The notes under the pieces: generated by a model
What the model was told of the DNA's origin: nothing
Seen by the model: the letters and a program-made list of their open reading frames with translations, nothing else
Databases searched by the model: none
Origin: a virus
Reading direction: 5' to 3' (one strand)
IMG/VR virus record: IMGVR_UViG_3300045988_070370
Coordinates: 1-64,000 of that record
Length of the DNA: 64,000 nucleotides
Translations under genes and position numbers: made by a program
Shown here: piece after piece, positions 35,601-54,490 of the stretch
How the letters are laid out: every line of letters starts with the position of its first letter
How positions within the stretch are numbered: the stretch's first letter is position 1

Positions 35601-38600
35601 ATTGTACGATGAACGTTGCCATCAGCATCCTTGGTCTCCTGAATCCAGCCGTTGCCCAACTTGTCGGAGTACTGCCACTGAATGTTGGCACCCATCATCT
35701 TAGCCAGTCTCTCGAAAGCCTTGCGAGTTTTCTGCCCCACGATGTTGTCAACGACCTTCATATCATCCACCTTATTCTTCTCTACGTCGGCTGCACGCTC
35801 GGCAGTTGTCTGCTGCTTGCCATTCTCCTTAGCAGAGAAAGGAAGGTCAGATTCATCAAGTTGTTCACCCAAAGGCTTCTCATCCGTTGCATCCTCGGGA
35901 GCCTCAATAGCATTGCTACCCTCTCTTAGTGTGTCAGGGAACTTTGTCTGCTCATTTACAAAATCTCTAAACTCTTTAGCGGTAGCAGCATCATAGAACG
36001 TTGCACCTTCTGTGATTTCGCTATCTATATTAGAAGAATGATTGAGGTCACGTCCTGCATTGAACTCCTCTTGCAGTTTTCCGAGTTGCTCAACGACTTC
36101 CGCATTGTCTGGGAAATAAATCACTTGGTTTATATTCTTGCCCTCATCAGGAACAAGAGTACTAACACCAAAGCCATCTTTGCACATCAAGAACAAATCA
36201 GCGTAGCTATTTAACTTAGATGTAGGGTCTATCTCTAAGCCTTGCTTCTTTGCCCATTTTGCAAGTTCTATAATATTGTTATTAATAGGTTCTCCTTGTT
36301 TATCAATAGCTGGTAAATCTATATTCTCCTCAGCCTTTTTCTTTTCCTCTTCTGCTTTCTTCTCCAGTTCAGCCTTTTTCTTTTCTTCCTCCTCCTTAGC
36401 TTTCTGTTGCTCGTAATATGCAGCATTCTCAGCAGCAGTCCTTTCTTCTTCAATGAGTTTTTCTGCCTGAGCGATACGAATATTCTCAATAAAACTTCTT
36501 GCTTCCGAAGCCTTGAAACCGCTTGTGAGCACATCAATAAGAGCATTACGAATATCTTGTGTATCGAGAGATTCAAGGTTGGATGGACGATTATCCCACA
36601 GACTATGTACGAGTGCATCTATAGTCGTTCCTTTGCCATCAGCAGCGAGCAACTGGGTCTTGGCAAAGTCTTCTCTGCTCAATCCAGTCTCTTGCTTAAC
36701 ACCCTTGCTTGTTTCTGTTCCCTCATAGTTGAGAGAGTGAGCACCGAGGTTGCTAGCCACATACTCCTCAGCAGTAAGCGGAATGGTATCTGTCACATCA
36801 ATGCCTGTACCATCATACAGACGATGCAGCAGAGTTCCAACCGTCTCCTTATAGATTTGAGCAACAGCCTCTGCATCATCCTTCACCGCACTCTTCAAGC
36901 GAGCAAACTTTCTTCTTGCCTTCTCAATAAGATTCTTTCTGCCCTCAGCAGTATCTTCCACCTTGGCAAGTTGTCGCTCATTATAGGCATCACGGATAGC
37001 GATAGCAGAGTCATAAGCCGCCTGAGCATCAGCAATAGCCTTCTCCTTAGCATCCTTGGAAGCCTTCTGTTCTAAGAAAGTCTTACCCTTCACGGTCATG
37101 TTGTTAGCCTTGTCGAGTGCCTTCTTTGCATCAGACACATATCCAGATACGATACTATCTGCATCCTCACCAAACTGATTATCATATAGCTCAGCAGTCT
37201 GTGCGGCAGTCAGCTTCGAGAAGTCAGGATTGCCATCCTCCAGCATAGGTACGATGGTTCCATCTTCAAGGGTAATGGTAGGAGCAGCAGGAGTCTGTTC
37301 TGTTGCAGGAGTCTCAGTAGTCTCATCAGAAGGAGCAGTAGTCTCTGTATTCTCTGCTACCTCAGGAGTTGTTTCATCCTCTATTGTAGGAGATTCCACC
37401 TCTATCTCACCTCTATTCTCTCCACTATTATCCTCTATCATTGAGGAGGCAGCAAATGCTTGCTTATACTCATCGAGCGACATAGAAGAGATTGTAGCCA
37501 CATCTTCTTTGTTCACAGCATGAGGAACAATAGTACCATCACTCTTCAACTCAACTACCTTAGCCTTAGCACCAGTATCACGAATAAGGAACAACTTGGA
37601 GTCAGGGTATTTAGTGTTACCATCCTCATCAAGTACATCAACGAGCACCACGTTTCCATTATCATTAAGTATTTGATTGAAATCAAATGAAGGTTGAGTC
37701 TCTTCTGTCTCCTGAGTCTGTTGGTCTGCACGTTCCTTCTCCAACTGCTCACGCTGAGCCTTAGCAGCTTCCAGTCTCTTCTGGTCTTCCAAGTCTTTCA
37801 TCTGCTGCAAGTCTGCAAGCGAATAAGGATTCTCCACCACGTTACCATCTATAGAGACAGCAGCAGTACCATCACCATAATCAGCCAACACCTCATAGGT
37901 ATGTTCAATACCATCAGTATCAGTCACATTGAACTGAGAGCCAACCTCTACAGTTCCGTCAATGATGCCAGCAATCTCTTTGATAGCATTCTCTTTTGCA
38001 TCAGCTACCGCCTGAGCCTTCACATCATCAGCAGGAAGTTCTTCACCCAGTTCAGCAAACATCAACGCATCAGCATGTTCTACACTATTCGTTGTCGGGT
38101 CGTAGTAGAGAATCATATCATCACTATTGCTTACATCAATAGAACCATCTTCATGAGTAGCAATATTACCGCTGATAATATACACACCATAATCTTCCAA
38201 ACCGCCTGATGCTTTGATGGTAGCGTTACGAACGGAGCCACGACTTCGGTCTGTGTACATATCCACTTTCTGTGCCGCCTGATGAGCAGCTATATCAACC
38301 TTGTCTTGTGCATCATCAATCACACCTTGGTATCGGGCAGAAGACAACTGATAATCATAGATAGCTTGGTCAAGTTTATCATCCTGTCCTGTCAGGGATT
38401 CCAGTTCCTCATCACTCATGGCAGATAGCTGCTGCTCAGAGATGCCAAATGCTGCTGCAAGAGTCTTCATCTGGTCTTCCTGCTGAATCTGAATATCATG
38501 CTTGTCTGCATCATCTGCATTATGACCTTCCGTATAAGCATCATCAAGGTCGTTTGATAATGTTGGAGCAGTATCACCTTCTTCAACCTTATCTTTTGTC

Positions 38601-40747
38601 TTTGCATCTGATGCCTGATTGAATCCACGAAGTTTGCTAAGGAACATAGCATAATTGATAACTGCACCTTTTTGCTTAGCAGTCATGGAGTCTGAGCGAG
38701 TAGCATCCAAGACAGTCTTAGTCAAGTCTGCATTGGTTGACACATCAATTTTGCTTTTTATTTCGTCCCAATTATCATTAAACAACCATTGACCGAACTT
38801 GTCTGCTTTGTTGACCTGATGCTTAATCTTGAAATATTGAACTGCATTTATAGCGCCAACAGCAGTTCGAGGAGCCTGCATGAAACCAACAGAATAGAAC
38901 ATTCCAAGGCAAGTATCAATCTGCTTTTCTCTCGCATCAGGATTTGTGAAAACATTGAAGTCACTCCAGCTTCCGTCTCCATCACCCCATGCAGCATGAA
39001 GGGCAGTACCAAATTCCTCTTCGGAAATCTCAGCCATCACACCTTGTATTCCAGACTTGTTGGTTGCATTGCTCAACCATTTATAGTAAGCATTATTGCC
39101 TATCTTTTCAAAGAAGGAAGATACTTTTGAAAGACCCAACTTAGACAACAACTTAGACGCACCAGGCAGATACTCACCGAACATTTCCGAGAAGTTCTCT
39201 ATTGTAGCTGAGCCAAAGCCATCCTTGATAGCCTTACCAAGACTGACACCTTCATTGAACTTCAAATCGCCATTCTTGTCTTGGGTCACACCTCCATTCT
39301 CGTTGTTCATTCCAACATAACGTTCTATCACATTATTATATGTAGAACCAAGTTGGTTGGTAGCTGCCAATGCTGCACTACCAGTCATATCACCGAGCAT
39401 ACGACCAGTATTTTTAGTAAACCATTTGCCAAGAGCACCGAGAGCCATTTTCTCTCCAACCTTTTCTCCTGTCTTGGTGAAACCAGTGGTCATAACATTT
39501 CTCCAGCCGCTTAACGCAAAGTCTCCCATGAACTTTAAGGAGCGACCGCTCACATCTCCATACTGATAAGCCTTTGTGCCATACTGCTGCTGTTTAGCAG
39601 CTTCTCCTTGTTGCTGCTGAATAGCACCAAGCATAGCTTGTGCTGCATTTCCTGCATTGGAACCTTTCTTGATTGTTCCATCTTCCATGCCCTTCTTTAC
39701 TTGGAGCAAATTGTTTGATATAGCTGCATCCATAACACCCTGAGAATATAACTTCGGGTCAAGCATGGTATTAAACATCGCACCAAAATAATTGGAAACG
39801 TCATTCCACTTATCTTTCCACCAACCAGCATTTTCATTTCTCTGCTTTTGTTCCTTCAACTCCTGAAGCAGAGTTGTACGCAACATCTGATTGTAAGCCT
39901 TGGCGGTATTATAAGCACCATACTCTACATCAGACAAGCGGTTTGCCTCATTGCTTATAGCTGTATTAAATGAAGAAGGAGCAACTGCTCCACCAGATGC
40001 AACAAAAGGAGAACCCTGCAAGTGCATAGACTCATTCAATTCCTTAGAACGTCTGTCCTGATTCTCGTTAAGCCACTCTTGTCTTCTCTCCATTTGTCGC
40101 ATAGCAACATCTGTGTCGGACAAATCTGGGTCAGCCTTATCCAATTCAGAAGGAACAATGCCCATATCAACTGCATTGTTCCACTCTTCCCCATATTTAT
40201 CCAACTGGTTCTGATACTGGGAAGCATCATACTCGTTGTCGAACTCTACACCATCTGTTGTAGTATAGGTTCCAGTCTTGCCTGTTGTCGAATTGTAGTT
40301 GAACTCATTCTTCTGTACATTCTTATTCTGTAAAGGATTCTTGAAACCGATAGTCACCTTACCACCATTTGCATTAAACTTCTTTGCTCGCTCAACCGTC
40401 TTACGGATATTGCCAGATGCACGCTTAACTTGTCTAGCAGTATTCAGGACAGATTGTGTCACAGACAAGTAACGAGCACGGTCAGCAGCACTCATAGGTA
40501 CACTACCACCCTTCGCCCTTGATGATGTCCTACTACGAGGTACAAAGAGTGCAGAATAGAAACGCTCATAAGTAGATGGAACATCAAAGTTCTGAGCCTT
40601 CAAGTTCTCATAAATAGCGTGTCTGTTATCTGCACCGCTCTTTCCGTCTCTGGTCAGGGCACTTTCAAACTTATTGTAATCATCAGGCACATCATAGTTC
40701 TGTGCTTTCAGATTCTTGTATAAAGTGTATAATGGTCTTTCTGCCAT
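23693..40747 (-). CDS. giant polyvalent (multi-enzyme) virion cargo/ejection protein, 5,684 aa
   Basis: A single uninterrupted 17,055-nt ORF. It contains two HExxH modules, a complete C5-MTase motif set, a PPase-like module, three ART-like modules, acidic and coiled-coil linkers, and a C-terminal region with hydrophobic helices. This architecture matches the polyvalent proteins described for phages and conjugative elements (Iyer, Burroughs, Aravind and co-workers). Confidence 0.9.
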   Translation of the reverse strand: MAERPLYTLYKNLKAQNYDVPDDYNKFESALTRDGKSGADNRHAIYENLKAQNFDVPSTYERFYSALFVPRSRTSSRAKGGSVPMSAADRARYLSVTQSVLNTARQVKRASGNIRKTVERAKKFNANGGKVTIGFKNPLQNKNVQKNEFNYNSTTGKTGTYTTTDGVEFDNEYDASQYQNQLDKYGEEWNNAVDMGIVPSELDKADPDLSDTDVAMRQMERRQEWLNENQDRRSKELNESMHLQGSPFVASGGAVAPSSFNTAISNEANRLSDVEYGAYNTAKAYNQMLRTTLLQELKEQKQRNENAGWWKDKWNDVSNYFGAMFNTMLDPKLYSQGVMDAAISNNLLQVKKGMEDGTIKKGSNAGNAAQAMLGAIQQQQGEAAKQQQYGTKAYQYGDVSGRSLKFMGDFALSGWRNVMTTGFTKTGEKVGEKMALGALGKWFTKNTGRMLGDMTGSAALAATNQLGSTYNNVIERYVGMNNENGGVTQDKNGDLKFNEGVSLGKAIKDGFGSATIENFSEMFGEYLPGASKLLSKLGLSKVSSFFEKIGNNAYYKWLSNATNKSGIQGVMAEISEEEFGTALHAAWGDGDGSWSDFNVFTNPDAREKQIDTCLGMFYSVGFMQAPRTAVGAINAVQYFKIKHQVNKADKFGQWLFNDNWDEIKSKIDVSTNADLTKTVLDATRSDSMTAKQKGAVINYAMFLSKLRGFNQASDAKTKDKVEEGDTAPTLSNDLDDAYTEGHNADDADKHDIQIQQEDQMKTLAAAFGISEQQLSAMSDEELESLTGQDDKLDQAIYDYQLSSARYQGVIDDAQDKVDIAAHQAAQKVDMYTDRSRGSVRNATIKASGGLEDYGVYIISGNIATHEDGSIDVSNSDDMILYYDPTTNSVEHADALMFAELGEELPADDVKAQAVADAKENAIKEIAGIIDGTVEVGSQFNVTDTDGIEHTYEVLADYGDGTAAVSIDGNVVENPYSLADLQQMKDLEDQKRLEAAKAQREQLEKERADQQTQETEETQPSFDFNQILNDNGNVVLVDVLDEDGNTKYPDSKLFLIRDTGAKAKVVELKSDGTIVPHAVNKEDVATISSMSLDEYKQAFAASSMIEDNSGENRGEIEVESPTIEDETTPEVAENTETTAPSDETTETPATEQTPAAPTITLEDGTIVPMLEDGNPDFSKLTAAQTAELYDNQFGEDADSIVSGYVSDAKKALDKANNMTVKGKTFLEQKASKDAKEKAIADAQAAYDSAIAIRDAYNERQLAKVEDTAEGRKNLIEKARRKFARLKSAVKDDAEAVAQIYKETVGTLLHRLYDGTGIDVTDTIPLTAEEYVASNLGAHSLNYEGTETSKGVKQETGLSREDFAKTQLLAADGKGTTIDALVHSLWDNRPSNLESLDTQDIRNALIDVLTSGFKASEARSFIENIRIAQAEKLIEEERTAAENAAYYEQQKAKEEEEKKKAELEKKAEEEKKKAEENIDLPAIDKQGEPINNNIIELAKWAKKQGLEIDPTSKLNSYADLFLMCKDGFGVSTLVPDEGKNINQVIYFPDNAEVVEQLGKLQEEFNAGRDLNHSSNIDSEITEGATFYDAATAKEFRDFVNEQTKFPDTLREGSNAIEAPEDATDEKPLGEQLDESDLPFSAKENGKQQTTAERAADVEKNKVDDMKVVDNIVGQKTRKAFERLAKMMGANIQWQYSDKLGNGWIQETKDADGNVHRTIFITLDSSITEGAQFIFGHEMTHQIKSLNPAAYNELTQLVLDTYGSDAFDKAVDETMLRYSDAGFSGRARDYYAEEVVADAVGEMIRDLNLAHTLAMKMSHPLLAAIHEILQKIKLAFFGTEYSDVTKNIIRSIEQAYVKTAKGEVTNSETGEDVSFSLRQKPEPKKKGVGYKVFVLKDGKLYPPMVANPDGAATPVGVWLDADAAPIAGESKTGRPQVKQGGKGTQGGSGKLAYRPGWHLGVVPYAIQFNRKDAEGNKTLFPKNFVFAEVEYAADVDYQEEARQEGINPSGKYQHSLAGLKHLPTDGYYMYRTNPNPETDPWVITGAMKVNRILTRAEQADLVSKAGREPQQIQEGDIVTDDVVNSINQEIADAPKFSIKTYHGSQASFDKFDHSFMGSGEGAQAYGWGTYVSEVEGIAKAYAKQNAKKNAPSRLMYQDKPMTYKTPSIIYQVAFNMDKFNISAKEAISQMIDAGEKKLASVDDTPFAKMKAKQVQDELNVLKGLNPSDFKINEDYDTVAQNLADTKSGLDLLEDELKDAKSYVDLYQSRLDEAKGELSKAKESGTGLGVDMYESDVMYYSEQVEKYKQNVKTKESDIKDVKTKIDALQKKLDSIGKPRNLYSVDIPDDTGDNYIGWDEPITPKMLEAKRRVMEEDGYTMYDSDGNYDYFEKTENGKYQYWQLWNRQKGNGLYSELSKVLHSDKLASLALNKQGIVGVKVIADRTTGGNKEGKMNYVIFDENNAQITNHTKFSLRLKSAIEETETNPSDAQKESGNYKKGHIKFGGYDYTIENPKGSTRSGKDANGKEWKVTMHDTYGYIRGKFGKDGDHLDMFINDKADLDNWDGDVFVVDQVNPDGSFDEHKVMYGYDSMDDAEKAYLANYSKGWKGLGNITGVSKDEFDKWLDTSKRKLKPFKDYTKVKFSLKDNQGNPLNQDGTLKLDKIKSVDELTDEDFLHPTRNVELPSLPKKIADAIGTEGKPVVIKKNIFERNYMRHKDVTPELSKVIFKSALYNPDLYGQNQKKTRPYNWVLINTKDEKGNNRTVLLEVNPNKDNVEIVHWHFVNDKNLGLIKKQAIREGDQVLILPSEQSEEVGGLSNLTDDLSAAKIDNSSETAKENGEKFSLKDEKTLAGVHNITEEKLRKALKLGGFANPSLAVIDTNKSGHDNFGEISFIAPSALVDKRTGKTAGTWITDAYTQRYPSVERQMSEKGSQKFEDWVDSLEYPSAAKAEIKRQTKDVMEDNGVPAWELMYLKEKGIDIKAYDSRIDYRWKEIINDHPTAEDILSSMQNDPELNEKVTSLAKHAIIHPTWEKVSLEVRRKMYKETGVKASPINPQVRKQTKEIFERDYKSTLLNKDGSPRKKDVKKVVEDIVKEHNDTKKYDFYLSKVKASNYVNKNGLYDDYIRWQENKLDEFGTKNRIFRGYTKDGSRKYVPETLENVSKAMREEADGQTNGSEYTSFGSFIAKLASRVDSTDEMRANKDKLSSNEDKEAFYEKWSEVYYDLAKFLYNDVFYGEQRLHDIVLQSDPKKYAKKEYGITLTPTFMKKLDALKNAVQTELKSAYFETKYNRPLRLNEFAAAVVPDNLGEDVRKGIEDAGLPMYDYDPNKEGDRSRAFNEAINSSDNIRFSLKAEKEKIVADAKSNGTYMTAPNGEKTKLDAEQWATVRTANFKNWFGDWENDPENASKVVDENGEPMVMYHYTDESFTIFGKDKEVGKNTFGNATNASYAATTTIGHWFTSNKKQPEYMGKPMACFLNIVEPFDGYTLEGLADYLNNYISDEDFNSYEEDYENVAPIIEAGNNFREEQIRDGYDGVVIDDEEFGGTSYVAFNANQIKSAENNNGDFSADNNDIRFSLAGERGAAAADKAEERTARMDFLSVARKMEEEKKDAKAIKMATGWERGADGKWRYEMPDAKIKDTMDVGGGQIVKRYEEDMLWNGGKLSKVIDAPELFKAYPQLKDVRIETDAIMNDMPSNGEYNAKTNTITIHADELKYMNSILNHEIQHAIQSIEGFDRGGSPRLVRGEIKKRLAEVTKQIRQLRAEGKEDEAKAIVEKNRGLYNAYQANDDYNSYKSLAGEVEARNVSARINMTPEERRKTLAESTEDVARKDQIFLGVGDVSFSLRDMADGKESGAADMAEDLKSLNTPDEVDDAIKTAIDDMPSGWQMANRKMIHIAQALGENRKAEIAGEEPKFSLKDGTLIKAGTYFSGGGLVEEGLKGIIDPVVAVEYDEKISGVYRNNFGQHIVTADVRDVDPKELVKQIDGEVEYFHASPVCKNYSQAKSNHAELELDKETAASTAEFINAIKPKVVTIENVKGYKDSEAMKTITDALDANGYTWDADVYNAADYGGYTNRERLIVRAVRDGKLPDKPKKMAHKSGWYEAVADIIPTLTEKKNGVAPWMDVRLKADGIDWRNIDKPLYVMGSAYADGKIPHAFADELLPTLRTKSGDVIVMPDGKVYRAMGRVLARVSGVSDDYKMPFSENLSHTIIGNGIPTQLTEHVIAPLLTGSDPKFSIRTYHGTGASFDKFDFSHMGEGEGSQAFGWGGYVTNSKDIAEDYTRRAKIRKDNGGFEFVTDMSANNKDMVRQYIYKYKDVNKGLDAMRKDLPSALEMFPDDDDLKELSNILAKKNEEIAVPDNIAYLYDVDIPDDNGDYLDWDAPLTDKQKNTIIKELRRLKIDFDDFKKRGFSFDGSFGGNAYDFLMYALRRTKKWKDVDASRAVSKFLSSIGFTGIKYKAGNIFGGAKEGDYNYVIFDENNANIVGNTRFSLRYDQFEHDLNQWKKDNNLPKDAKRPSIPQRNAGESAVDFLRRVDDYRKQMALWKTAPTYEQHLLSDDTALGEFNRELQRGSVLKRIAFQDSMLAIRKAQEAIMKEVGVDRLNMAEDAYTAENRSHGKGKNEFEEYNNEFLQPLRKAYHQMKKVLGDSYDNVRIYMMAKHGLERDAQMAFKKSLEADYEDVAQRSAAYRAYKGDMNRMGNDSGFELGYIDFTTWRQRDNALRVKYSPSYMNYRYDKMGIAYDYSGLSALFDGSDFEEAAHKLIKDIESKYITETHNLWDATNAATKKILRDGYKAGMMSKDTYQYVRDMYSHYIPLRGWDGTTADQVWDYIGGGKGAFNQTLKTAHGRTSIADDPIAYIENMAESGILLNNKNWVKQHLMLLAQNHPTSLLTLSKAWYVKSTDANGNEEWIPATPQITSQMNSNQVKTAIDAFEKKMEQMAQTGDATQKRDGLNIAYPQTHSEEREHEVRVMKDGEEYVIYVNGDPQLAQAMNNTRAHRVREIQSGKLDRAAAWLGRKMAAAYTSLSPLFIPSNYFRDLTMTLASTAIREDGRYNYMLRKNLATSWNLGFMLRDYQNGKLREKVNNGNATPKEQMFYDFMMNGGETGFVSSLDVEDLKKKFKNDLKDLDRWKANPVKVGHTIMDGIEFLNRAIEDSNRFAVYMTSIQYGRSIDEAVNDAKDVTLNFNRKGTGEYGWQMIRNLYLFINPAVQSLQTLGALVKHHPFKFTAVTASWLASGVLVPIVNAALMSMLGGDDDKDKYWQFTKWDRRNNLIMWVPFTHEFVKIPLAQEFRAFYGLGDMIASKMMGGELAEESWSQYGEDLLGQVVDMLPLDPTGYDGNIAVSLMPNAIRPVFELAFNVDFTGKPLFKDTEYNKYDPNFTKAYVGTPDWLVRASKMVNSIGNDYPDVQQNSIDAFGDPRYNLNNPAVVDHVLSSYLGGAYTMGSQVLGVLTKSLNDPKEIKVADIPLFSKFVSNPDDRPVTKKQGDEFWDMKENHDRAANTLSKLKKQAKVDGDYSMLERFYGSEEYKQYKQDDVKVKKYEEDKKKERAEESGEEYRPHKLNAEDIYKAHATPKDDFEDLKLKQLYTKLNGFKTSYDLLVDTAPSQSDGYYNTNKAAIDAIDEISLDKQEISELKKGFLDDGKDAYNAEDMKQIRELRKKIISVLEKANKVVVANQKANAKKK
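23696..27274 (-). other. giant protein aa 4492-5684: C-terminal helical region with hydrophobic (membrane-insertion?) helices
   Basis: Contains DSNRFAVYM...AKDVTLNFNRKG and the hydrophobic stretch HHPFKFTAVTASWLASGVLVPIVNAALMSML (about nt 24985-25090). Ends in a Lys/Glu-rich coiled coil. Confidence 0.4.
27275..28048 (-). other. giant protein aa 4234-4491: ART-like module copy 3
   Basis: KFSIRTYHGTGASFDKFDFSHMGEGEGSQAFGWGGY ... YDVDIPDDNGDYLDWDAP ... DYNYVIFDENNANIVGNTRFSLR is collinear with copy 1. Confidence 0.35.
28058..28999 (-). other. giant protein aa 3917-4230: embedded DNA (cytosine-5) methyltransferase domain
   Basis: Motif I is YFSGGGL (nt 28955-28969). Motif IV variant is ASPVCKNYS (Cys3995). 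Motif VI is TIENVKGY (nt 28643-28651). Motif VIII variant is YTNRERL. Motif X is GNGIP (nt 28103-28117). Confidence 0.8.
29219..30022 (-). other. giant protein aa 3576-3843: zincin-like HExxH module 2
   Basis: GWERGADGKWRYE...AYPQLKDV...SILNHEIQHAIQSIEGF (HEIQH at nt 29576-29590, aa 3720-3724) ... SLAGEVEARNVSAR. This is a signature common in polyvalent proteins. Confidence 0.5.
30023..30712 (-). other. giant protein aa 3346-3575: ART-like module copy 2
   Basis: NFKNWFGDWEND...VVDENGEPMVMYHYTDESFTIFG ... DGYDGVVID ... TSYVAFNANQIKSAENNNGDFS...DIRFSL. The pattern matches what I recall of the ART-PolyVal family (WFGDS.VVDE.G.P.VVYHGT ... QIKSA.N.G.F). Confidence 0.4.
30713..32221 (-). other. 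giant protein aa 2843-3345: conserved-looking module of unknown function (LAGVHNITEEKLRKALKLGGFANPSLAVID...)
   Basis: About 500 aa between two KFSLK/RFSLK boundaries. No catalytic motif recognised. Confidence 0.35.
32222..32821 (-). other. giant protein aa 2643-2842: possible PBECR-type (Barnase/EndoU/RelE-fold) nuclease module
   Basis: The pattern VVIKKNIFERNYMRHKDVTPE...RTVLLEVN...NVEIVHWHF resembles phage PBECR domains. Assignment is from memory only. Confidence 0.25.
32822..33334 (-). other. giant protein aa 2472-2642: inorganic-pyrophosphatase-like module
   Basis: IENPKGSTRSGKDANGKEW...YGYIRGKFGKDGDHLDMFI...DEHKVMYGY...AEKAYLANYSK parallels the family I PPase signature (EIP.G...KYE.D...G ... 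YG(F/Y)I..T...DGDP.DVLV). Confidence 0.45.
33335..34471 (-). other. giant protein aa 2093-2471: ART-like module copy 1
   Basis: Begins KFSIKTYHGSQASFDKFD and ends MNYVIFDENNAQITNHTKFSLR. This is a paralog of aa 4234-4491. The HG[ST]...F..F start and YV.F end recall PARP/ART-PolyVal-type ADP-ribosyltransferase folds, an assignment made from motif memory only. Confidence 0.35.
34472..35122 (-). other. giant protein aa 1876-2092: module of unknown function (GYKVF..DGKLYPP ... AYRPGWH)
   Basis: Delimited by FSLR (aa 1872) and FSIK (aa 2093). No enzymatic motif recognised. Confidence 0.4.
35135..35839 (-). other. giant protein aa 1637-1871: zincin-like HExxH module 1
   Basis: FIFGHEMTHQIK (HEMTH at nt 35534-35548, aa 1734-1738), bounded by the FSAK and FSLR boundary motifs. 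Confidence 0.5.
40544..40732 (-). other. giant protein aa 6-68: tandem peptide repeat
   Basis: LYKNLKAQNYDVPDDYNKFESAL and IYENLKAQNFDVPSTYERFYSAL are two copies of a roughly 23-aa unit separated by about 14 aa. Confidence 0.7.
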
Positions 40748-45135: not shown

Positions 45136-45329
45136 AGCATAAAAAAAGAGGAATCCCAAGGTCATGTTGCGCTAACCAAGGGATTCCATATCTAAAAAGG
45201 CATAAAGCCTGAAAGGAGGACAAATCTGTATGTGTCAATCGCAACTTTGACGATGCAAATATAGAGGCTTTTTCCGAAACTACCAAATGTGAAAAATCAC
45301 TAAATTGTAAAACATTGAGATTTTAGCAT

Positions 45330-45356
45330 TAGTGGATATGTAGTGGATATATAGTA
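45330..45356. repeat. repeat family R1, proximal copies (TAGTGGATAT x2, then TAGTGGATATATAGTA)
   Basis: TAGTGGATAT occurs at 45330 and 45341. The 16-mer at 45341-45356 recurs with one mismatch at 45680-45695. Confidence 0.7.
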
Positions 45357-45467
45357 CAACATATTTTTAGAATGGTTAATCTTGGTTAAAGTAGTTGTCG
45401 GTATAAAATATAATCACTACTTTTGCAATGATACAAATGTGTTACTTTTCAAAATTTAACATTTGAA

Positions 45468-45486
45468 TGTTACTATTTTGTTACTC
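45468..45486. repeat. repeat family R2 copy 1 (TGTTACTATTTTGTTACTC)
   Basis: A 19-bp perfect direct repeat of 45711-45729. Additional GTTACT and TTAACATTT units lie nearby. Confidence 0.8.
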
Positions 45487-45679
45487 ACGCAAAGCTAATG
45501 AACACATAAGTGTCTGATTATTAGTACTTTACAATAGAAATACAAATTGATGGAATTTACCGCTCAGCAATCAAAGAAAAATAGCTTACTAATACCTATT
45601 ACATAGCTAATAACACCTAAAATACTTATTATCAACCACTTACAAATAGCAATCTGATAAATATCTCCGTTTTAGATAT

Positions 45680-45695
45680 TAGTAGATATATAGTA
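45680..45695. repeat. repeat family R1, distal copy (TAGTAGATATATAGTA)
   Basis: Matches 45341-45356 at 15 of 16 positions. Confidence 0.7.
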
Positions 45696-45710
45696 GGTAT
45701 TAGCATATCT

Positions 45711-45729
45711 TGTTACTATTTTGTTACTC
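45711..45729. repeat. repeat family R2 copy 2 (TGTTACTATTTTGTTACTC)
   Basis: Perfect copy of 45468-45486, 50 nt upstream of the integrase -7 box. Confidence 0.8.
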
Positions 45730-45778
45730 GTTCTTAACATTTATCTCCCATTTTCTTGCAAGTAACAAAAAATATAAT

Positions 45779-47500: not shown

Positions 47501-47926
47501 CTATCGTTGTTTCAGTACTATATATGTAACTACAGAACCGACAATAGCCCCAATGAAAGCGTCTGCAACCATCCACATAATCTTGTAGATTACACCATGT
47601 TGTTCCTTAAATGAAGACTCCTTCTTTAGAGCCTTCACTTCCTCCTCATGCTCCTTTTTTAACATACTGCCATTCCAAAGGATTGGTATCTGGCTCCTGC
47701 CCTGCTTGGTAACACTATACACCACCCTGGATTCTTGGTTACTATAGGCATACCCTCGGTTGAGGTATTCGCTCTTCACCAATAGTTCTGCAACACCCTC
47801 TTTCCAAGCACCATCAGGAGATACGTTATCATAAATGATACTCCATATCTCCTGCTCATACTCAGACTTGTCTCGGATGCTATCCAGCAGCACGTAAAGC
47901 TTCTGTTCATTTGTTATCTCAGCCAT
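47501..47926 (-). CDS. TM-anchored small protein, last gene of repressor operon
   Basis: Soluble N-domain (KLYVLLDSIRDKSEYE...) plus a C-terminal TM helix IMWMVADAFIGAIVGSVVTYIVL. Its start overlaps the upstream stop (TAATG). Confidence 0.6.
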   Translation of the reverse strand: MAEITNEQKLYVLLDSIRDKSEYEQEIWSIIYDNVSPDGAWKEGVAELLVKSEYLNRGYAYSNQESRVVYSVTKQGRSQIPILWNGSMLKKEHEEEVKALKKESSFKEQHGVIYKIMWMVADAFIGAIVGSVVTYIVLKQR

Positions 47927-49116
47927 TATTTTATCCCCAAACTTTGTATTTGATTTTTTAAGATTTTTGATTTTGTTATATAATCAATGTTATTTAAACG
48001 GCAATGATTTATGGTTACATCATTGCCAGACATTGCGCCAAAAACCAAACTACAAATATACCCATTATAATCACCTCGTTTCTGAGAAATAGTTGCCATC
48101 ATAAGAAAACAACTTCCTATTGTATCGTTAACTCGACCTTTTCCATCAAGTACATCTATTTTGGATAAGCCATATCTATCTTGTAATACAGACAAACTTT
48201 TCTCGAAACAAGAATTTGCTAACGTGTACGCATTTTTGTCGTAATATGCAAAGCCTTGCATATAATATGCATCTCCCAAAAGTTCATTCAACAAATTAGA
48301 GGAAAGAGATAAGTATTGTCTCTTGTGCTCAATACAATCTATCAGTTTTTCCGAATATAATATCGTGTTATCTCTATCCTTTAAACCGTCATAGGCTATC
48401 ATTCGATAATAATATGAATAGAAATAAGAATCGTCTGACAAATATATATAAGGGTCATCAATCCATTCGTTACATACATCAATACACTCTCTATCTTTAT
48501 GTGTACTAAGATAACATCTTGCTAAGTATCTGTAGCCTTTATCCGTTAAAAGGTTTTTATATTTAAAATCTTCCATTTGATGAATAATCATACTATAACT
48601 TCCAGAAGAAAAATTAGATTCTAAACCTTCATATACTTTATCTATATACTCAGGGCTATAATTTGCCGTTGATTTATTTATAATAAGCTTGTTCCCATCT
48701 ATACCAACCTTACCAATTTTCTGAATTGCAGACAAACCTAACAATAAAGGTGCTCTTTGACTATCCAATATAACAGCCTCGACATCATCAATTTTAATAC
48801 CACCTATCTCTAATCTTTTTATTTTAACAACAATATGGTCTATACTTTCACCAGACGCAATAGTAGAAGACCCCTCGCCAATAACGTCTGTTTCACGCAA
48901 CAATCCATTACGGAACATATAAGACGCAACCTTAGAAGACAGACTAACATCGGATGCTCCTGTGTCAAATATCATACTAACTTTATAGCCATTAACTGTA
49001 CACGGAACCGTAAAAACACCACCATCTTTTGTCATTTCTATAACTGTTTGTGAAAAAACACATAAGCTAATTAACATAAAAGACAAAACAAACATTACTC
49101 TTTTCATACCTACCAC
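47926..49116 (-). CDS. secreted/lipoprotein retropepsin-like aspartic protease fused to TPR-like repeats (396 aa)
   Basis: Signal peptide MKRVMFVLSFMLISLCVFSQ. Clan AA signature VNGYKVSMIFDTGASDVSLS ... IGGIKIDDVEAVILD...APLLLGLSAI. The C-terminal about 230 aa are Tyr/Leu-rich and helical-repeat-like. Confidence 0.65.
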   Translation of the reverse strand: MVGMKRVMFVLSFMLISLCVFSQTVIEMTKDGGVFTVPCTVNGYKVSMIFDTGASDVSLSSKVASYMFRNGLLRETDVIGEGSSTIASGESIDHIVVKIKRLEIGGIKIDDVEAVILDSQRAPLLLGLSAIQKIGKVGIDGNKLIINKSTANYSPEYIDKVYEGLESNFSSGSYSMIIHQMEDFKYKNLLTDKGYRYLARCYLSTHKDRECIDVCNEWIDDPYIYLSDDSYFYSYYYRMIAYDGLKDRDNTILYSEKLIDCIEHKRQYLSLSSNLLNELLGDAYYMQGFAYYDKNAYTLANSCFEKSLSVLQDRYGLSKIDVLDGKGRVNDTIGSCFLMMATISQKRGDYNGYICSLVFGAMSGNDVTINHCRLNNIDYITKSKILKNQIQSLGIK

Positions 49117-50340: not shown

Positions 50341-50449
50341 CAAAATAAAAACTACAATCGGGCAACGGTAGATATAATAATGTATAAAATGAAAATTTGT
50401 CACTTTCTGTTTCATACACTACCGCCCGATTTTAAAACTGGAGGAAAAT

Positions 50450-51325
50450 ATGAATGAAATTGTTTACAGAGGTGAAAGCAACCAACCTCTAACAAATAGC
50501 AAACTGGTTGCTGAGGTCTTCGGCAAAGAGCACCGCAATGTTGTAAGAGACATTAAAAACCTCATCGAAGGGGGTGTGCTCAAAAATGAGCAGACCCCGA
50601 TGTTTGAAGAAACTACCTACATCAACGAGCAGAACAAACAGAGTTATCCTATGTTCATCATGAACCAAGATGGTTTCACCTTGCTGGCGATGGGATTCAA
50701 TGGCAAGAAAGCGATGGAGTTCAAACTTAAATACATTGAAGCCTTCAACGCTATGAAGAGACAGATTGAGCAATCCAAGCCATCAGTCCCTCAGAACTAT
50801 CTCGAAGCTCTCAAATCTCTGGTCAAGGCAGAAGAGGAGAAACAGCAGTTAGCCTTGGAGAACAAGCAGCAGCAAGCAACCATCCTCACTATCAGCAAGG
50901 AGAACATGGAACTTGGGAACAAGATTACCGAAATGCTGCCTAAGGTAAGCTACTACGACCAAATCCTGCAAAGCAATGCCACCATGACCATCACCCAGAT
51001 AGCGCAGGACTACGGAATGAGTGCGGTGAGAATGAACAAAGAGTTGGAATCTATGAGAATCCAGCATAAGGTTCGAGGTCAGTGGATATTGTACGGACAG
51101 TTCCTTACTGGCGGCTACGTTCATAGCAGAGCAGTTGACATCATCCGTTCAGACGGAAGGCATGACGTGAAGTATAACACCGAGTGGACAACCAAGGGAA
51201 GAATCTTCCTTTATGATGCACTCAAAGCGAAGGGCATTCTCCCCTTAATAGAGCAGGAATGTACTCCCAGTAGTAAAGGCACTGGTAGAACAGAGTCGTC
51301 AAAGACAACTGGTGCCTGTCAGTAA
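50450..51325 (+). CDS. antirepressor: Rha-family N-domain plus KilAC/ANT C-domain
   Basis: The N-terminal LTNSKLVAEVFGKEHRNVVRDIKNL...FTLLAMGFNGKKAMEFKLKYIEAFN fits the Rha pattern. The C-terminal YDQILQSN..MTITQIAQDYGMSAVRMNKEL fits the KilAC pattern. Confidence 0.75.
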   Translation: MNEIVYRGESNQPLTNSKLVAEVFGKEHRNVVRDIKNLIEGGVLKNEQTPMFEETTYINEQNKQSYPMFIMNQDGFTLLAMGFNGKKAMEFKLKYIEAFNAMKRQIEQSKPSVPQNYLEALKSLVKAEEEKQQLALENKQQQATILTISKENMELGNKITEMLPKVSYYDQILQSNATMTITQIAQDYGMSAVRMNKELESMRIQHKVRGQWILYGQFLTGGYVHSRAVDIIRSDGRHDVKYNTEWTTKGRIFLYDALKAKGILPLIEQECTPSSKGTGRTESSKTTGACQ

Positions 51326-51626
51326 ACCATCAAATTCAACTGATATGATAGACCCACAGATTAAGGAGCAGTTAGACCGCATCGAGCAGTATTCGATGAT
51401 AGCTGCAAAGAATGTGCTCAACATTCAGGAAGCTGCAATCATCCTTGGCATGACGGTAGAAGGTGTGAGGTATAATGTTAGAAACAACAAACTTCCCTGC
51501 TACAAACCGAACGTCAACCGACTCTACTTCAAGAAGAGTGAGCTGGAAGACTGGATGATGCAGAACCGCTCGAAGAGTATGGCAGAGATAGAATCAGAGG
51601 CAGCAGCCTATTGTACAACCCATTAA
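51312..51626 (+). CDS. excisionase-like / MerR-type HTH protein
   Basis: LNIQEAAIILGMTVEGVRYNVRNNKLPCYK...LYFKKSELEDWM fits the excisionase-family HTH pattern. An alternative start, MIDPQ, is at 51345. Confidence 0.55.
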   Translation: MPVSKPSNSTDMIDPQIKEQLDRIEQYSMIAAKNVLNIQEAAIILGMTVEGVRYNVRNNKLPCYKPNVNRLYFKKSELEDWMMQNRSKSMAEIESEAAAYCTTH

Positions 51627-51871
51627 AAATATAGAATATGTTCTCAACAGTTATGTTATTATTGTCAATTATCACTTTTTGCGTGATGACAAACGAGATT
51701 TACCGCTCATTCAAGGAATGGGGCAAATAAGAGACATGGTGAGTGAACCTCAAATAAAGTTCATATAGATAAAAATTTAGTTAGCGTTATTGATATTGTT
51801 TAAGTGGAGGTTTTTGAAGTTCACTACTTCCACTCACCACAAGCCAGAAATGTTTTATGTTGATGCGTAAG

Positions 51872-51949
51872 ACGCAAGTAGTTCAGTTGGTAGAACAGAA
51901 GGTTCCCCATCCTTCGATGTCGTGGGTTCGAGTCCCACCTTGCGTCCCA
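51872..51949 (+). tRNA. tRNA with 8-nt anticodon loop UUCCCCAU (isotype undetermined; CCC/Gly-like or CCCC quadruplet); CCA encoded
   Basis: Hand-folded cloverleaf. Acceptor ACGCAAG/CTTGCGT. D-arm GTTC-AGTTGGTA-GAAC. Anticodon stem GAAGG/CCTTC around TTCCCCAT (51903-51910). Variable region GATGTC. T-arm GTGGG-TTCGAGT-CCCAC. Discriminator C, then CCA. Confidence 0.8.
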
Positions 51950-52525
51950 ATAGCCTGATTCCAAGGCTTCATATCGGATAGGATAAACCTTCCTGAAGAG
52001 GTACTCGCAGCCAAGAGCAGCGTATGCAACCACAACATACGATTAGACGAGGAAGTGGCAAGACTATTACCTGCACCGCAACAGGTGGAATTGGGAACGT
52101 CTTGGAGTTCACTTGTGAAGATGCAGACCTGATGCCGTGACCATTATTATATAAGGTAGCATTAAGAGGTAGGAGCGCACAACTACAATTCGGTTCTAAT
52201 GCAGCCAGCATGAAACAGAATAGATGAAATATTGTAACTACATATTTTAATTTTGCTCTTTAATCATTTATAATGTATGCGGAAATAGTGCTGGGAGTCC
52301 TAAGCCTCCATGAATGCAGAAGGGAACTTGAAGACACATGTCCTTAGGCGAAAGCGTGGCTCGGCTTGTGTCTTTGGGCGCACGGATTGGATCAAAGGCC
52401 TCGGACGTGCGCCCTTTTCAATAGAAGTTTTTTCATTAGATTCCATACATTTTGCGGTAGCGACCGCTCAGGTGATAAAGAAAACACTCGCCCCACCATT
52501 CGTGAGAATCGTGGGGTTTTATTTT
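51950..52525 (+). ncRNA. candidate structured non-coding RNA(s), unclassified
   Basis: About 580 nt with no convincing ORF, and visibly GC-richer than its flanks. Hairpins: 52021-52041, 52069-52086, 52331-52374 (8 bp), 52376-52414 (9-bp GGGCGCACG/CGTGCGCCC, then TTTT) and 52454-52467. The region ends in a strong intrinsic terminator. Orientation is inferred from the terminators. Confidence 0.4.
52491..52525 (+). terminator. intrinsic terminator (GNRA-capped hairpin plus U-tract)
   Basis: CCCCACCATTC-GTGA-GAATCGTGGGG (one C.C mismatch) followed by TTTTATTTT. Confidence 0.75.
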
Positions 52526-52554
52526 GAAAGTCAAACAATTAAATATTATAGCTT

Positions 52555-52893
52555 ATGAACAACTCAGCAAGTGGAAACTATCCACCAGGCGCAGCCAACG
52601 ACCCTTCTGCACCTTACAATCAGCCAGAATATCCTGAGTATCAGGACTACGATGTTACGGCATCATTCGTACTTGACAAGTCGTTTACAGTTACCTCTTC
52701 TTCTGATGATGAGGAAGGCATCAAGCAAGACCTCATTGAAGACTACATGACACCTTTAGACCTCATCAAAGAGTTGAAAAAAAGGCTGCAAGGCGAGTTG
52801 AAATTAGACCCGACAAACAAAGTAACCAAGAGTCTTATCAAGGAGTGTGATGGATGGACGTGTGACTGTGACATCTGTGTTGACAACATTTAA
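52555..52893 (+). CDS. acidic hypothetical protein (112 aa)
   Basis: First ORF after the terminator. Asp/Glu-rich, with a Cys-rich C-terminus CDGWTCDCDIC. Confidence 0.5.
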   Translation: MNNSASGNYPPGAANDPSAPYNQPEYPEYQDYDVTASFVLDKSFTVTSSSDDEEGIKQDLIEDYMTPLDLIKELKKRLQGELKLDPTNKVTKSLIKECDGWTCDCDICVDNI

Positions 52894-52904
52894 ATAATAT
52901 AGGT

Positions 52905-53570
52905 ATGGGCAACTTAGACTTATACAACAAACTCAAAGTCGTACCAGCGGAAGCAATAAAACCAATCCAGAATGGGCGACTTAAAGGCAAGAGTGACATC
53001 AATCCGATGTGGCGCATCAAGACGATAACAGAACATTTTGGTGTTTGCGGAATTGGTTGGAAGTATGTTATTACAAAGCAATGGACTGAAACGTATGGCA
53101 CGGAGACTAAAGCGTACTGCAATATAGACCTTTTCGTCAAGGTTGATGGTCAATGGTCAGATGCTATTCAGGGAACTGGAGGTTCATCTGAGGTTACGAT
53201 GGAACGTAATGGTTCATACGTATCTGACGAATGCTACAAAATGGCACTCACAGACGCACTCTCTGTAGCAATGAAGGCACTTGGTGTTGGAGCAGACATT
53301 TACTTTGAGAAAGGAAAGCAAATGGACTATTCATCAAAGTACGATATGCAAGAGGATTTAGCAAAAACTCAGCAGCAAGAAGCCAAGACGCAGCAGCAGA
53401 CCGCTACACAGTATCACCCTAACGAACTGAATGAAGGATTGTGTTATCTGAGCAGATGTGTCAACAAGGACAATCTGATATGGGTAGTTCAGACATACAA
53501 GCCGCTTACCGCCAACCCTCAGTTTATGCAAGCAGTATCGGCTAAGAAGAAACAATTAGGAATACAATAA
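52905..53570 (+). CDS. Rad52/Sak-like single-strand annealing protein
   Basis: NGRLKGKSDINPMWRIKTITEHFGVCGIGW and KMALTDALSVAMKALGVGADIYF resemble the Rad52-family signatures (FG..G.GW ... K.A.TDA.KRA...LG.G..LY). Confidence 0.6.
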   Translation: MGNLDLYNKLKVVPAEAIKPIQNGRLKGKSDINPMWRIKTITEHFGVCGIGWKYVITKQWTETYGTETKAYCNIDLFVKVDGQWSDAIQGTGGSSEVTMERNGSYVSDECYKMALTDALSVAMKALGVGADIYFEKGKQMDYSSKYDMQEDLAKTQQQEAKTQQQTATQYHPNELNEGLCYLSRCVNKDNLIWVVQTYKPLTANPQFMQAVSAKKKQLGIQ

Positions 53571-54490
53571 TGACAGAAGTAAAGAAAATTACATTGAATG
53601 AACCAAAGGTTACATTCATTGAAGAATCTCATCAGTACTTCCTCGGAAAGAAGGAACTGAAAGGTGTAACAGGAACGCTCATCAAGAAAGCCTTCCCTGA
53701 CACATACAAGAATATTCCAGAGTCTGTACTGATGAAGGCAGCAGAGCGTGGAGGTCTCATCCACAACACGTTTGAAACCTTCTGTTCCATCTTCGATGCA
53801 GACATCAAACAGTACCCGAACCCTACCGAAGAGATTCAAGCCTTCCATAGTATGTTAGTCGCATACGATTTACACTATGTAGCATCCGAGTATCTTGTTA
53901 CAGATGGAGAGAACTTTGCATCTGCTATAGATGGTATCTTCTCTGATAATGAAGGCAACATCTATCTGGTAGATTACAAGACCACCTCCACTCTCCATTA
54001 CGACAATGTATCTCTCCAGTTATCCATCTATGCAAAATGGTTCGAGGAGCAGAATCCCGACTTGAAAGTGAAGGAGATTGTTTGTATGTGGTTTAAGAAC
54101 GGACAGAGCAAGTTCCAGCCTCTCCCAAGGGTAGCGGATGAGCAGATAGACGAGTTAATTAACGCTTATCTCACAGACGATGCAGACTATCAGTATAAGG
54201 TAGAAGTACCTGAACAGTTCTCGGCACTGGAGCAAGAGTATCGCCTGATAACTGCCCGTATTGATGCGATGAAAATTGTGCAGGACGGATTGAAGGAGAA
54301 GATAATGAAAATGATGGAGGCTAACAAGCAGAAATCCATCAAGACTAATATCGGTTCCTACTCTTATGTGGCAGCTACCACCAAGAAGGTCTTCGACACG
54401 AAGCTGTTCAAAGATACGGAGCCAGACCATTACGAGTATTATCTGAAGGAAACGGCTACCAAGCCATCGTTAAGAATCAAACTTAATTAA
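53570..54490 (+). CDS. PD-(D/E)XK exonuclease (recombination partner)
   Basis: SAIDGIF...IYLVDYKTT supplies the D...(D/E)xK motif. Lies adjacent to the annealase, with an ATGA-type overlap at 53570. Confidence 0.6.
   Translation: MTEVKKITLNEPKVTFIEESHQYFLGKKELKGVTGTLIKKAFPDTYKNIPESVLMKAAERGGLIHNTFETFCSIFDADIKQYPNPTEEIQAFHSMLVAYDLHYVASEYLVTDGENFASAIDGIFSDNEGNIYLVDYKTTSTLHYDNVSLQLSIYAKWFEEQNPDLKVKEIVCMWFKNGQSKFQPLPRVADEQIDELINAYLTDDADYQYKVEVPEQFSALEQEYRLITARIDAMKIVQDGLKEKIMKMMEANKQKSIKTNIGSYSYVAATTKKVFDTKLFKDTEPDHYEYYLKETATKPSLRIKLN

Follow-up and report, generated by a model that had tools for sequence, protein, structure and literature searches.

A phage tRNA family with an eight-nucleotide anticodon loop adjoins a conserved structured RNA and a predicted twister ribozyme

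Introduction

Transfer RNAs (tRNAs) with an anticodon loop of eight nucleotides (8 nt) have so far been known as organellar curiosities or as laboratory suppressors. The yeast mitochondrial tRNAThr(UAG) has a natural and conserved loop of this size, which arose by insertion into an existing tRNA, and it reads triplets, so that an 8-nt loop need not cause frameshifting (PMC3113583); in the same system, a G at position -1 (G-1) is the key determinant for histidyl-tRNA synthetase (HisRS) and an antideterminant for another synthetase (PMC3113583). Phage tRNAs with changes in the anticodon loop evade host tRNA nucleases (PMC10264068, PMC11555353), and in gut Bacteroidota/Bacillota phages, where few tRNA genes depend on an encoded CCA, tRNAs are adjoined by theta ribozymes, which are of the hepatitis delta virus (HDV)-like type (PMC10879173). 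Here we analyze a tRNA-family gene with an 8-nt anticodon loop from a phage genome in IMG/VR (record IMGVR_UViG_3300045988_070370, positions 1 to 64,000; this whole stretch of 64,000 nt is referred to as the window), together with its orthologs and the RNA elements that adjoin it.

In the MALAT1 mascRNA, the tRNA-microRNA units of MHV68, and the stable RNAs of the T4 tRNA cluster, a tRNA-shaped element adjoins a functional RNA and RNase P/Z defines the ends; the anticodon region of these elements is unconstrained, and their anticodon arms are usually degenerate. The C4 RNA of P1/P7 and the CI RNA of P4 are small phage RNAs with a tRNA-like precursor that is processed by RNase P; they are encoded beside antirepressor or immunity genes, and a loop sets their specificity. 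In the locus described here, a complete cloverleaf with an expanded loop is followed by a structured RNA and a predicted twister ribozyme. The locus lies at the lysis-lysogeny control region of very common prophages of Segatella (Prevotella copri complex), hosts with few genetic tools and almost no characterized phage biology. An earlier reading of the window, made from its letters without database searches (the sequence-only reading), had interpreted the gene as a quadruplet decoder of the sufD type.

Results

The window encodes a canonical tRNA body with a genuine 8-nt anticodon loop

ARAGORN found a single tRNA in the window (Table 1) and reported it as "tRNA-??? anticodon (cccc)," with a four-base anticodon. 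The Rfam tRNA model RF00005 matched positions 51872-51946 over its full length (52.2 bits, E=1.6e-9), with one extra anticodon-loop base being required. As read from the sequence, the acceptor stem is ACGCAAG/CTTGCGT and is followed by U8 and A9, the D arm is GTTC-AGTTGGTA-GAAC and is followed by A26, the T arm is GTGGG-TTCGAGT-CCCAC, and the variable region is 6 nt long (GATGTC), one base more than usual. The gene has what is expected of a canonical tRNA in its 7-bp acceptor stem, its D and T arms, U8, A14, G18G19, C48, and T54-T55-C56; it departs from the canon in the loop, which is 8 nt long and not 7 nt with a purine at position 37. U33 is kept, and position 37 is unassignable in 8-nt loops, being a pyrimidine in several alleles under any register. 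With CCCC directly after U33 (positions 51903-51910), the loop has the layout of sufD-type suppressors. Neither ARAGORN nor the Rfam model offered a 7-nt alternative for this gene. The structural part of the sequence-only reading, namely, a canonical cloverleaf with a U33-CCCC-A loop of 8 nt, no acceptable 7-nt register, and one extra base in the variable region, is thus borne out.

More than 50 independent assemblies, drawn from IMG/VR, ENA, and Logan, contain this gene with its 8-nt loop. Single-base variants of the loop (ccct, ctcc, cctc, tccc, ccca, and acca) all stay at 8 nt, and no copy with CCC or CCCCC in the loop was found among those assemblies; three-C loops in related genomes were what the sequence-only reading had named as the sign of an assembly error. 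At the 3' end, by contrast, copies differ in the length of the C-run (CC, CCC, and CCCC). An error in a homopolymer was therefore rejected, since the assemblies agree, the variants keep 8 nt, and only the 3' C-run changes length, and the 8-nt anticodon loop is confirmed as genuine. Because the loop C-run is fixed in length and the shorter 3' run is not, loop size seems to matter. The variable 3' run also makes the encoded CCA dispensable: the CCA pointed out earlier is present in the window but is not conserved across orthologs.

The tRNA fold is conserved across the family and the loop letters are not

The family was assembled from a scan of IMG/VR with the twister core (see below), which matched at least 120 loci, and from loci found earlier, and at least 119 orthologous loci of temperate Segatella/Prevotella phages were analyzed. 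The scan added about 70 loci that lack the exact 19-mer of the RNA following the tRNA and have an identical layout. In all of the at least 119 loci, the order is Rha/Ant, helix-turn-helix (HTH) protein, tRNA, structured RNA, twister, exonucleases, DUF3127, and DUF1367; the proteins neighboring the locus are mostly 60-97% identical across loci, and the orthologous tRNAs score 48-55 bits with RF00005 in all clades.

Purifying selection acts strongly on the tRNA fold, and each of the four stems shows compensatory changes: among the 19 alleles of the window's clade, double-sided compensation was found at acceptor pairs 1, 3, and 6, D pair 2, anticodon-stem pair 5, and T pair 3. The elbow nucleotides and U33 are invariant. 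Family-wide, the second loop base is always U (U33), U32-U33 are conserved, the sequence of the anticodon stem is nearly invariant, and C73 is present in 54 of 56 alleles irrespective of the loop. The 8-nt length of the loop is maintained as well, with 8-nt loops in 107 and 7-nt loops in 12 of 119 loci among the matches listed. The letters after U33 are not conserved family-wide. The four-base "anticodons" of the 107 loci comprise cccc and its variants, tatg, cttc, ccat, tcat, caat, cacc, catg, and accc, and between clades 91 of 131 comparisons at loop positions 3-8 differ (69%, close to random), against 15 of 340 (4%) at the other unpaired positions of the tRNA. The anticodon is thus not conserved among orthologs, and of the four-C loop proposed by the sequence-only reading it is the length that persists in relatives, the letters being different in sister clades (UAUG, CUUC, CCAU, CACC, and others). 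Among the matches listed, all 7-nt loops (UUCAUAG, UUCAUCC, and UUCAUCG, in three body clades) carry CAU at positions 34-36, and all non-CAU loops are 8 nt long.

When steps were counted by parsimony on a flank-based tree of the window's clade, there were 1.5 steps per column for the anticodon, 0.99 for flanking DNA, and 0.46 for the tRNA body, with 0 steps for U32, U33, and the two 3' bases of the loop (A and U). Hypermutation of the anticodon within the clade was rejected, as this phylogeny-aware count is close to the flank rate and a strong contrast is seen only in the comparison between clades. A 6-bp anticodon stem together with a normal 5-nt variable loop is found in many alleles; in general, irregularities cluster in the anticodon half, as 6-bp stems, indels at the junction or in the variable loop, and a pyrimidine 37 in several alleles.

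These data leave little room for the view that the gene is an assembly artifact or a decaying, functionless pseudogene. A few low-coverage contigs (L041 and L046, about 5x) do carry several damaging changes in the tRNA; set against them are more than 100 independent loci with compensation in every stem, invariant tertiary nucleotides, conserved position and synteny, and the uniform Rfam scores given above, and this explanation can scarcely be credited.

Alleles with CAU (7 nt) and with CCCC (8 nt) occur on identical flanks. Two loci, L016 and L051, have the D arm of a CAU allele together with a CCCC or UCCC loop and 3' half and look recombinant when they and L030-L036 are compared with L009 and L019, which suggests a cassette-like exchange inside the tRNA gene.

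A structured RNA and a predicted twister ribozyme follow the tRNA

The noncoding RNA directly 3' of the tRNA, of about 245 nt and termed the middle RNA here, is as conserved as the tRNA itself. Indels of 2 nt and 3 nt are tolerated within 51950-52192, and the segment is therefore not coding. RNAalifold predicted 66 pairs within the clade, 5 of them compensated, and a consensus of 51 pairs across clades, 11 of them with double-sided compensation. Conserved motifs are GGAUAGGAUAAACCUUCCU, an AACCACA loop, GGAGUUCACUUGUGAAGA, and AGCGCACAACUACAAU. No Rfam family matched the middle RNA even at E<=10, and an identity as T-box, RNase P, HDV, or group I RNA found no support in Rfam; neither was there any match to the HDV family in the window at E<=10, and the sequence shows the hairpin next to the tRNA to be too small for P2 plus P3 of an HDV-like fold. 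To the eye, some features of the middle RNA resemble RNase P and T-box motifs. The middle RNA looks like a new motif, and it may act as a ribozyme in its own right or bind a protein. A motif with the sequence CGCCCGATT (in the window, GCCTGATT) is found at about 50420-50450, upstream of the ribosome-binding site of the antirepressor gene ant, and again at 51950-51975, at the 5' end of the middle RNA.

The middle RNA is followed by a predicted type-P1 twister ribozyme. In two orthologous loci without an insertion, L002 (3067-3133) and L007 (1683-1751), the Rfam model RF03160 matched over its full length with 51.4 bits (E=2e-9) and 44.4 bits (E=2e-7), respectively, against a curated cut-off of 67.2, and the match covers P1, the U-A-A cleavage site, P2, GCC, P4, and the GUCC.AAGCC core. 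The two halves of the window copy are near-identical to these orthologs. The window copy itself gave a partial match of 28.3 bits (52267-52327) because an insertion of about 78 nt splits its P3 loop; most family members, including the window, carry an insertion of 40-100 nt there. A degenerate duplicate of the 5' strand of the twister lies at 52267-52285. By analogy with the twister consensus, we take the cleavage site to be U52197/A52198, which is the 3' edge of the middle RNA. The approximately 230 nt between the twister and the next gene (52328-52554) are conserved too, with a very weak match to RAGATH-21 at 52333-52372 (16 bits, E=5). An open reading frame (ORF) of 82 amino acids (aa) begins inside the twister (52310-52558); it is probably not coding, because a 2-nt indel in some orthologs breaks the frame.

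On the 5' side of the tRNA, a T-rich motif found in all clades may be a promoter of the Bacteroidota type. Its distance from the tRNA is variable, which argues that a leader is transcribed and that RNase P is needed. For the same reason, transcription is unlikely to start at the purine at position -1, which was found in 22 of 22 nonredundant upstream regions (12 G and 10 A).

A conserved tRNA fold, an unconstrained anticodon, and a conserved RNA directly adjoining are together what a processing module would present, and we tentatively favor the reading that an ancestral tRNA(CAU) lost the constraint on its anticodon by expansion of the loop while its fold stayed in service as a processing or structural module within a tRNA-RNA-ribozyme transcript, a reading to which we give somewhat less than an even chance. 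The ancestor would have been an ordinary tRNA(CAU). Expansion to an 8-nt loop would have lifted selection on the anticodon, so that CCCC-like alleles would no longer be dedicated decoders of a single codon, and the tRNA body would persist since its shape, and not its loop sequence, is the selected property. RNase P and 3'-processing enzymes would recognize this shape and cut the early transcript there, which would separate the upstream mRNA and define the 5' end of the middle RNA; self-cleavage of the twister at the predicted site would define its 3' end. Once freed, the RNA of tRNA size may still have CCA added and be bound by proteins that recognize tRNAs.

Several observations weigh against a processing or structural role. 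A pure RNase P/Z handle would have no need of the anticodon stem, U33, and the 8-nt length, all of which are conserved; the C-run of the loop never changes length, although the shorter 3' C-run does. The anticodon does not differ significantly from the body within the clade (P=0.11). In both deep sub-lineages of the window's clade, most alleles have CCC, which the divergent locus L056 also retains. Finally, the phage uses codons that are scarce in its host flank (per 1,000 codons, phage versus host flank: GGG, 3.5 versus 0; AGG, 4.4 versus 0; AUA, 16.7 versus 3.1), the host sample consisting of the four genes that flank one integrated copy (1,291 codons).

Acceptor end and codon use in relation to a role in decoding

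The identity set of tRNA-Gly, as established in work on Escherichia coli and Thermus thermophilus, comprises U73, G1:C72, C2:G71, and G3:C70. Of these, the window gene has only C2:G71 and G3:C70; it carries C73, A1:U72, and G-1, and the verdict of the sequence-only reading that the acceptor end is not Gly-like and that G-1 can pair with C73 holds. The His-like character that it saw in this pair extends to all 19 alleles of the window's clade but not to the whole family. Position -1 is G in the cccc and ccat clades and A in the large tatg/cttc clade, which has G1:C72, and about half of the wider family has A there. Among the matches listed, no family member has the GUG anticodon of tRNA-His. 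Similarity to annotated tRNAs of E. coli and phages was uninformative as to isotype, the matches being scattered over Asp, Phe, Asn, Gln, Met, and His.

Of the glycine codons, GGG is the one that the phage uses least (67 codons, 3.5 per 1,000). In orthologous genes it is exchanged with GGA, GGT, and GGC in 26 cases and with His codons in only 2 (background), so that GGG means glycine. A reassignment of this sense codon from Gly to His, an idea derived from the His-like acceptor end, was rejected on these grounds.

The gene could be an active triplet decoder in which the 8-nt loop is tolerated, with the window allele reading GGG and other alleles reading AUA, AUG, AAG, etc. The lineage would then switch anticodons on one body, and the odd loop might resist the anticodon nucleases of the host; triplet reading with an 8-nt loop (PMC3113583) and nuclease evasion by phage tRNAs (PMC10264068, PMC11555353) both have precedents. 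U33, the anticodon stem, and the full set of tertiary interactions are conserved as a decoder would need them, and within the clade the two central Cs of the loop are the least variable, giving an NCC-like core. GGG, AGG, and AUA are rare in the host flank and used by the phage, and GGG is slightly more common in loci of the cccc clade (5.5 per 1,000 versus 3.3-4.4 elsewhere), these loci being redundant and confounded by phylogeny. However, codon usage does not clearly track the tRNA allele, the loci are not independent, and the host sample is small (1,291 codons). A C73 whatever the anticodon, together with the G-1 of the clade, is poor for glycyl-tRNA synthetase and for most synthetases, from clade to clade the loop letters are essentially random, and position 37 is a pyrimidine in several alleles. 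We regard triplet decoding as possible and yet doubtful.

The sequence-only reading had gone further and proposed that the tRNA reads GGGG and serves programmed +1 recoding of one of the phage's own genes. The 8-nt loop UUCCCCAU has the sufD layout, its length is conserved, and C2:G71 and G3:C70 are Gly-like. The genome scan proposed along with this idea found no ORF pairs joined in the +1 frame at GGGG in the 64-kb phage, and relaxed scans at AGGG, GGGA, and GGGN gave nothing convincing in the window. At none of the 16 in-frame GGG-G sites does the +1 frame stay open for more than 64 codons (range, 1-64), and gene callers report intact genes on eight independent assemblies. One sub-backbone carries either CCCC (8 nt) or CAU (7 nt), and therefore no essential phage gene can depend on GGGG decoding; moreover, single-base variants of the anticodon occur without a compensating change nearby. 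The quadruplets of other alleles (CAU-A and GAA-G) start with very common codons, so that general reading of quadruplets would be highly disruptive. Since the acceptor end also lacks U73 and G1:C72, GGG stays glycine, and the loop letters are not conserved, we consider a quadruplet decoder for programmed recoding highly improbable.

No significant avoidance of the slippery GGG-G context was seen in a comparison with GGH-G (26% versus 35%, p=0.17). Three overlapping ORFs in three frames lie before and over the large terminase gene (11414-12297 and 12210-14423, plus strand; terminase of 737 aa from an apparent TTG start), and GGGT sites in the ORFs of this region gave spurious +1 candidates.

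An uncharged or mischarged tRNA could also enter the A site and act against the ribosome, causing stalling, missense incorporation, or +1 frameshifting in messages of the host or of competing phages, with a loop that can be retargeted. In the window's clade, charging with His would be conceivable, as the invariant G-1:C73 serves HisRS as its main determinant and is effective also in a tRNA with an 8-nt loop (PMC3113583). The layout of the loop is that of classical +1 suppressors, its hypervariability is compatible with retargeting, and the host housekeeping genes in the flank are free of GGG codons. But GGG is in use in the phage's own genes (67 codons, including 16 in GGG-G) and is not avoided, the part of the family with A at -1 lacks the His determinant, other alleles would strike very common codons (CAU-A and GAA-G), and a temperate phage that carries such a gene must coexist with its host. 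A ribosome-directed saboteur of this kind is, in our opinion, improbable. Taken more broadly, the family might be a natural one of retargetable expanded-loop tRNAs that are matured from a tRNA-RNA-ribozyme transcript and act on the ribosome at sites specified by the loop, through quadruplet/+1 decoding or codon-specific interference, with an arms race against hosts or competing phages as the force that diversifies the loops; this we judge to be unlikely.

Complementarity of the loops to the ant initiation region

The genes immediately upstream of the locus are ant and the HTH gene, and the loop of the tRNA is variable on an invariant stem, with a conserved Y-U start. These features are reminiscent of C4 and CI RNA, and the gene might encode a tRNA-shaped antisense or immunity RNA that is released by RNase P and whose variable loop, presented by the U-turn, would pair with the translation-initiation region of ant or of another gene and set regulatory or immunity specificity. 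Some complementarity was found: UUCAUAG is complementary to CUAUGAA at the start codon of ant, UUCUUCCC pairs with GGAGGAA (the ant Shine-Dalgarno sequence), CUCCAUUA pairs with AAUGGAG, and many loops are pyrimidine rich and resemble anti-Shine-Dalgarno sequences. However, the matches are 6-7 nt long with G.U pairs included, their targets are generic Shine-Dalgarno and AUG elements, and the CCCC loop of the window pairs worst of all (4-5 nt). The initiation region of ant is nearly invariant while the loops vary, and an identical loop occurs with different variants of the initiation region, so that there is no covariation. Different clades do not share a complementary 7-mer at any homologous position, and no private compensating changes were found near the variant loops at their loci. 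C4-like pairing to the ant initiation region was accordingly rejected, as the matches are short and lack covariation, and we think it quite unlikely that the tRNA acts as an antisense or immunity RNA. The Shine-Dalgarno sequence of ant (GGAGGAA) is a strong one, which is unusual for Bacteroidota.

Genomic neighborhood and host

Gene callers leave a gap of about 930 nt at the tRNA locus, the features of which are listed in Table 1 together with the genes on both sides. The 64-kb surroundings are those of a temperate phage, with a portal protein, large terminase, tail genes, a tyrosine integrase of the Bacteroidota type, and a C5 methylase; no phage resembling the window was found in GenBank. 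The identical Rha/Ant protein is present in dozens of human-gut assemblies from unrelated studies. Some of the contigs that bear it are free genomes of about 64-67 kb, and others are integrated beside pyrF and prfA of Segatella/Prevotella, flanking names that indicate Segatella/Prevotella as the host. All of these contigs, as well as those obtained by pattern scans of IMG/VR and of metagenomes, have the tRNA with its 8-nt loop. Scans of 185k representative genomes gave no matches to host tRNAs or prophages.

Table 1 Features of the tRNA locus and adjoining genes (window coordinates)
Feature	Position	Strand	Details and basis
Rha/Ant antirepressor gene	50450-51325	+	Pfam, PHROG; synteny in every clade
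HTH_17 excisionase-like gene	51312-51626	+	Pfam, PHROG; synteny in every clade
T-rich, C-free segment (possible promoter)	51845-51870	+	Motif TGTTTT[ATG][AT][AG] in all clades, -13 to -33 from tRNA +1
G at -1	51871	+	Can pair with C73; invariant in the window's clade although bases upstream vary
tRNA-family gene with 8-nt anticodon loop	51872-51949	+	C73, 51946; CCA, 51947-51949; ARAGORN and Rfam
Anticodon arm	51898-51915	+	Stem GAAGG/CCTTC (51898-51902/51911-51915); loop TTCCCCAT (51903-51910)
Structured noncoding RNA (middle RNA), ~245 nt	51950-52192	+	Directly 3' of tRNA; conservation, compensated pairs
Type-P1 twister ribozyme (predicted)	52193-52327	+	5' half, 52193-52210; ~78-nt P3-loop insertion, 52211-52288; 3' half, 52289-52327
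Exonuclease and PD-(D/E)XK recombination genes	52905-54490	+	PHROG, Pfam; 58-94% amino-acid identity across clades

In integrated copies (L024, 1-5400, and L026, 1-5400; about 45200-45760 in the window), the integrase end lies directly downstream of a run of host protein genes, and the attachment site is therefore not a tRNA gene. In Segatella/Prevotella this run comprises a ubiE-like methyltransferase gene, aroE, purM, prfA (RF1), and pyrF.

Downstream of the twister, an acidic ORF of 112 aa (52555-52893) with a C-terminal CxC/CxxC cluster has no match in Pfam or PHROG and is restricted to one sub-backbone. It was rejected as a partner of the CCCC allele, since it tracks the backbone and not the allele, the co-occurrence being due to linkage. 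A gene for a 396-aa retropepsin-like aspartyl protease (47926-49116, minus strand; gag-asp_proteas/Asp_protease_2, with a weak TPR match) lies in the lysogeny-control region, an unusual place for such a gene. An ORF of 5,684 aa (23693-40747, minus strand) has Pfam matches, obtained on identical copies, to ART-PolyVal, InPase, PBECR5, several LPD domains, and a DNA methylase; its product is a giant polyvalent protein, likely anti-restriction or injected.

Discussion

More than 100 phage loci from human-gut metagenomes keep an 8-nt anticodon loop under selection on a tRNA body that is conserved by compensatory change. Should these RNAs prove to decode, they would give the first natural system of a bacterial virus for the handling of expanded loops by ribosomes and would also provide a scaffold, already at hand, for quadruplet-codon engineering in Bacteroidota. 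Should they not, they would exemplify a tRNA gene that has turned into an RNA-processing or structural module, and the locus would point to a new class of structured RNA of about 245 nt and to a phage variant of twister placed to cut an early operon transcript. In the open literature, we found no description of phage tRNAs with 8-nt loops, of the middle RNA, or of a tRNA-RNA-twister unit.

The classical suppressors (sufD tRNA-Gly with CCCC, SufB2/SufA6 tRNA-Pro, and SufJ tRNA-Thr) likewise have a normal cloverleaf with one extra nucleotide in the anticodon loop, and the loop of the window allele (UUCCCCAx) is sufD-like. Those suppressors are laboratory mutants of defined host tRNAs that keep the identity elements of their parents, whereas the phage gene is natural; in comparison with sufD, its acceptor end (A1:U72, C73, and G-1) lacks Gly-like character, orthologs differ in its "anticodon," and no gene that would be a frameshifted target was found in the phage. 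The yeast mitochondrial tRNAThr(UAG) has a fixed anticodon, a dedicated and coevolved synthetase, and a proven codon reassignment; in the phage family, by contrast, the loop letters vary and GGG stays glycine. Phage tRNAs that evade nucleases differ in keeping a normal anticodon and an isotype-specific body, and, as far as a term search of PMC10264068 can tell, changes in loop length are not mentioned there and are apparently not part of that work.

Among tRNA-shaped elements with other roles, modules of the mascRNA type differ from the phage family in that the latter keeps the anticodon arm, U33, and loop length, and its partner RNA ends in a predicted self-cleaving ribozyme. Compared with C4 and CI RNA, the phage gene is a full canonical cloverleaf, and no covarying target was found for it. 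The predicted twister departs from the type-P1 family in Rfam: insertion-free copies reach 51 bits against a cut-off of 67, and most copies carry the 40-100-nt insertion in the P3 loop. Theta ribozymes paired with gut-phage tRNAs (PMC10879173) are the closest precedent. As in those pairs, a gut-phage tRNA is coupled to a ribozyme of a self-cleaving type, and the hosts are Bacteroidota; theta ribozymes lie within 5 nt of the tRNA end, whereas the element found here is a predicted twister, not HDV-like, that lies about 245 nt downstream, beyond a structured RNA.

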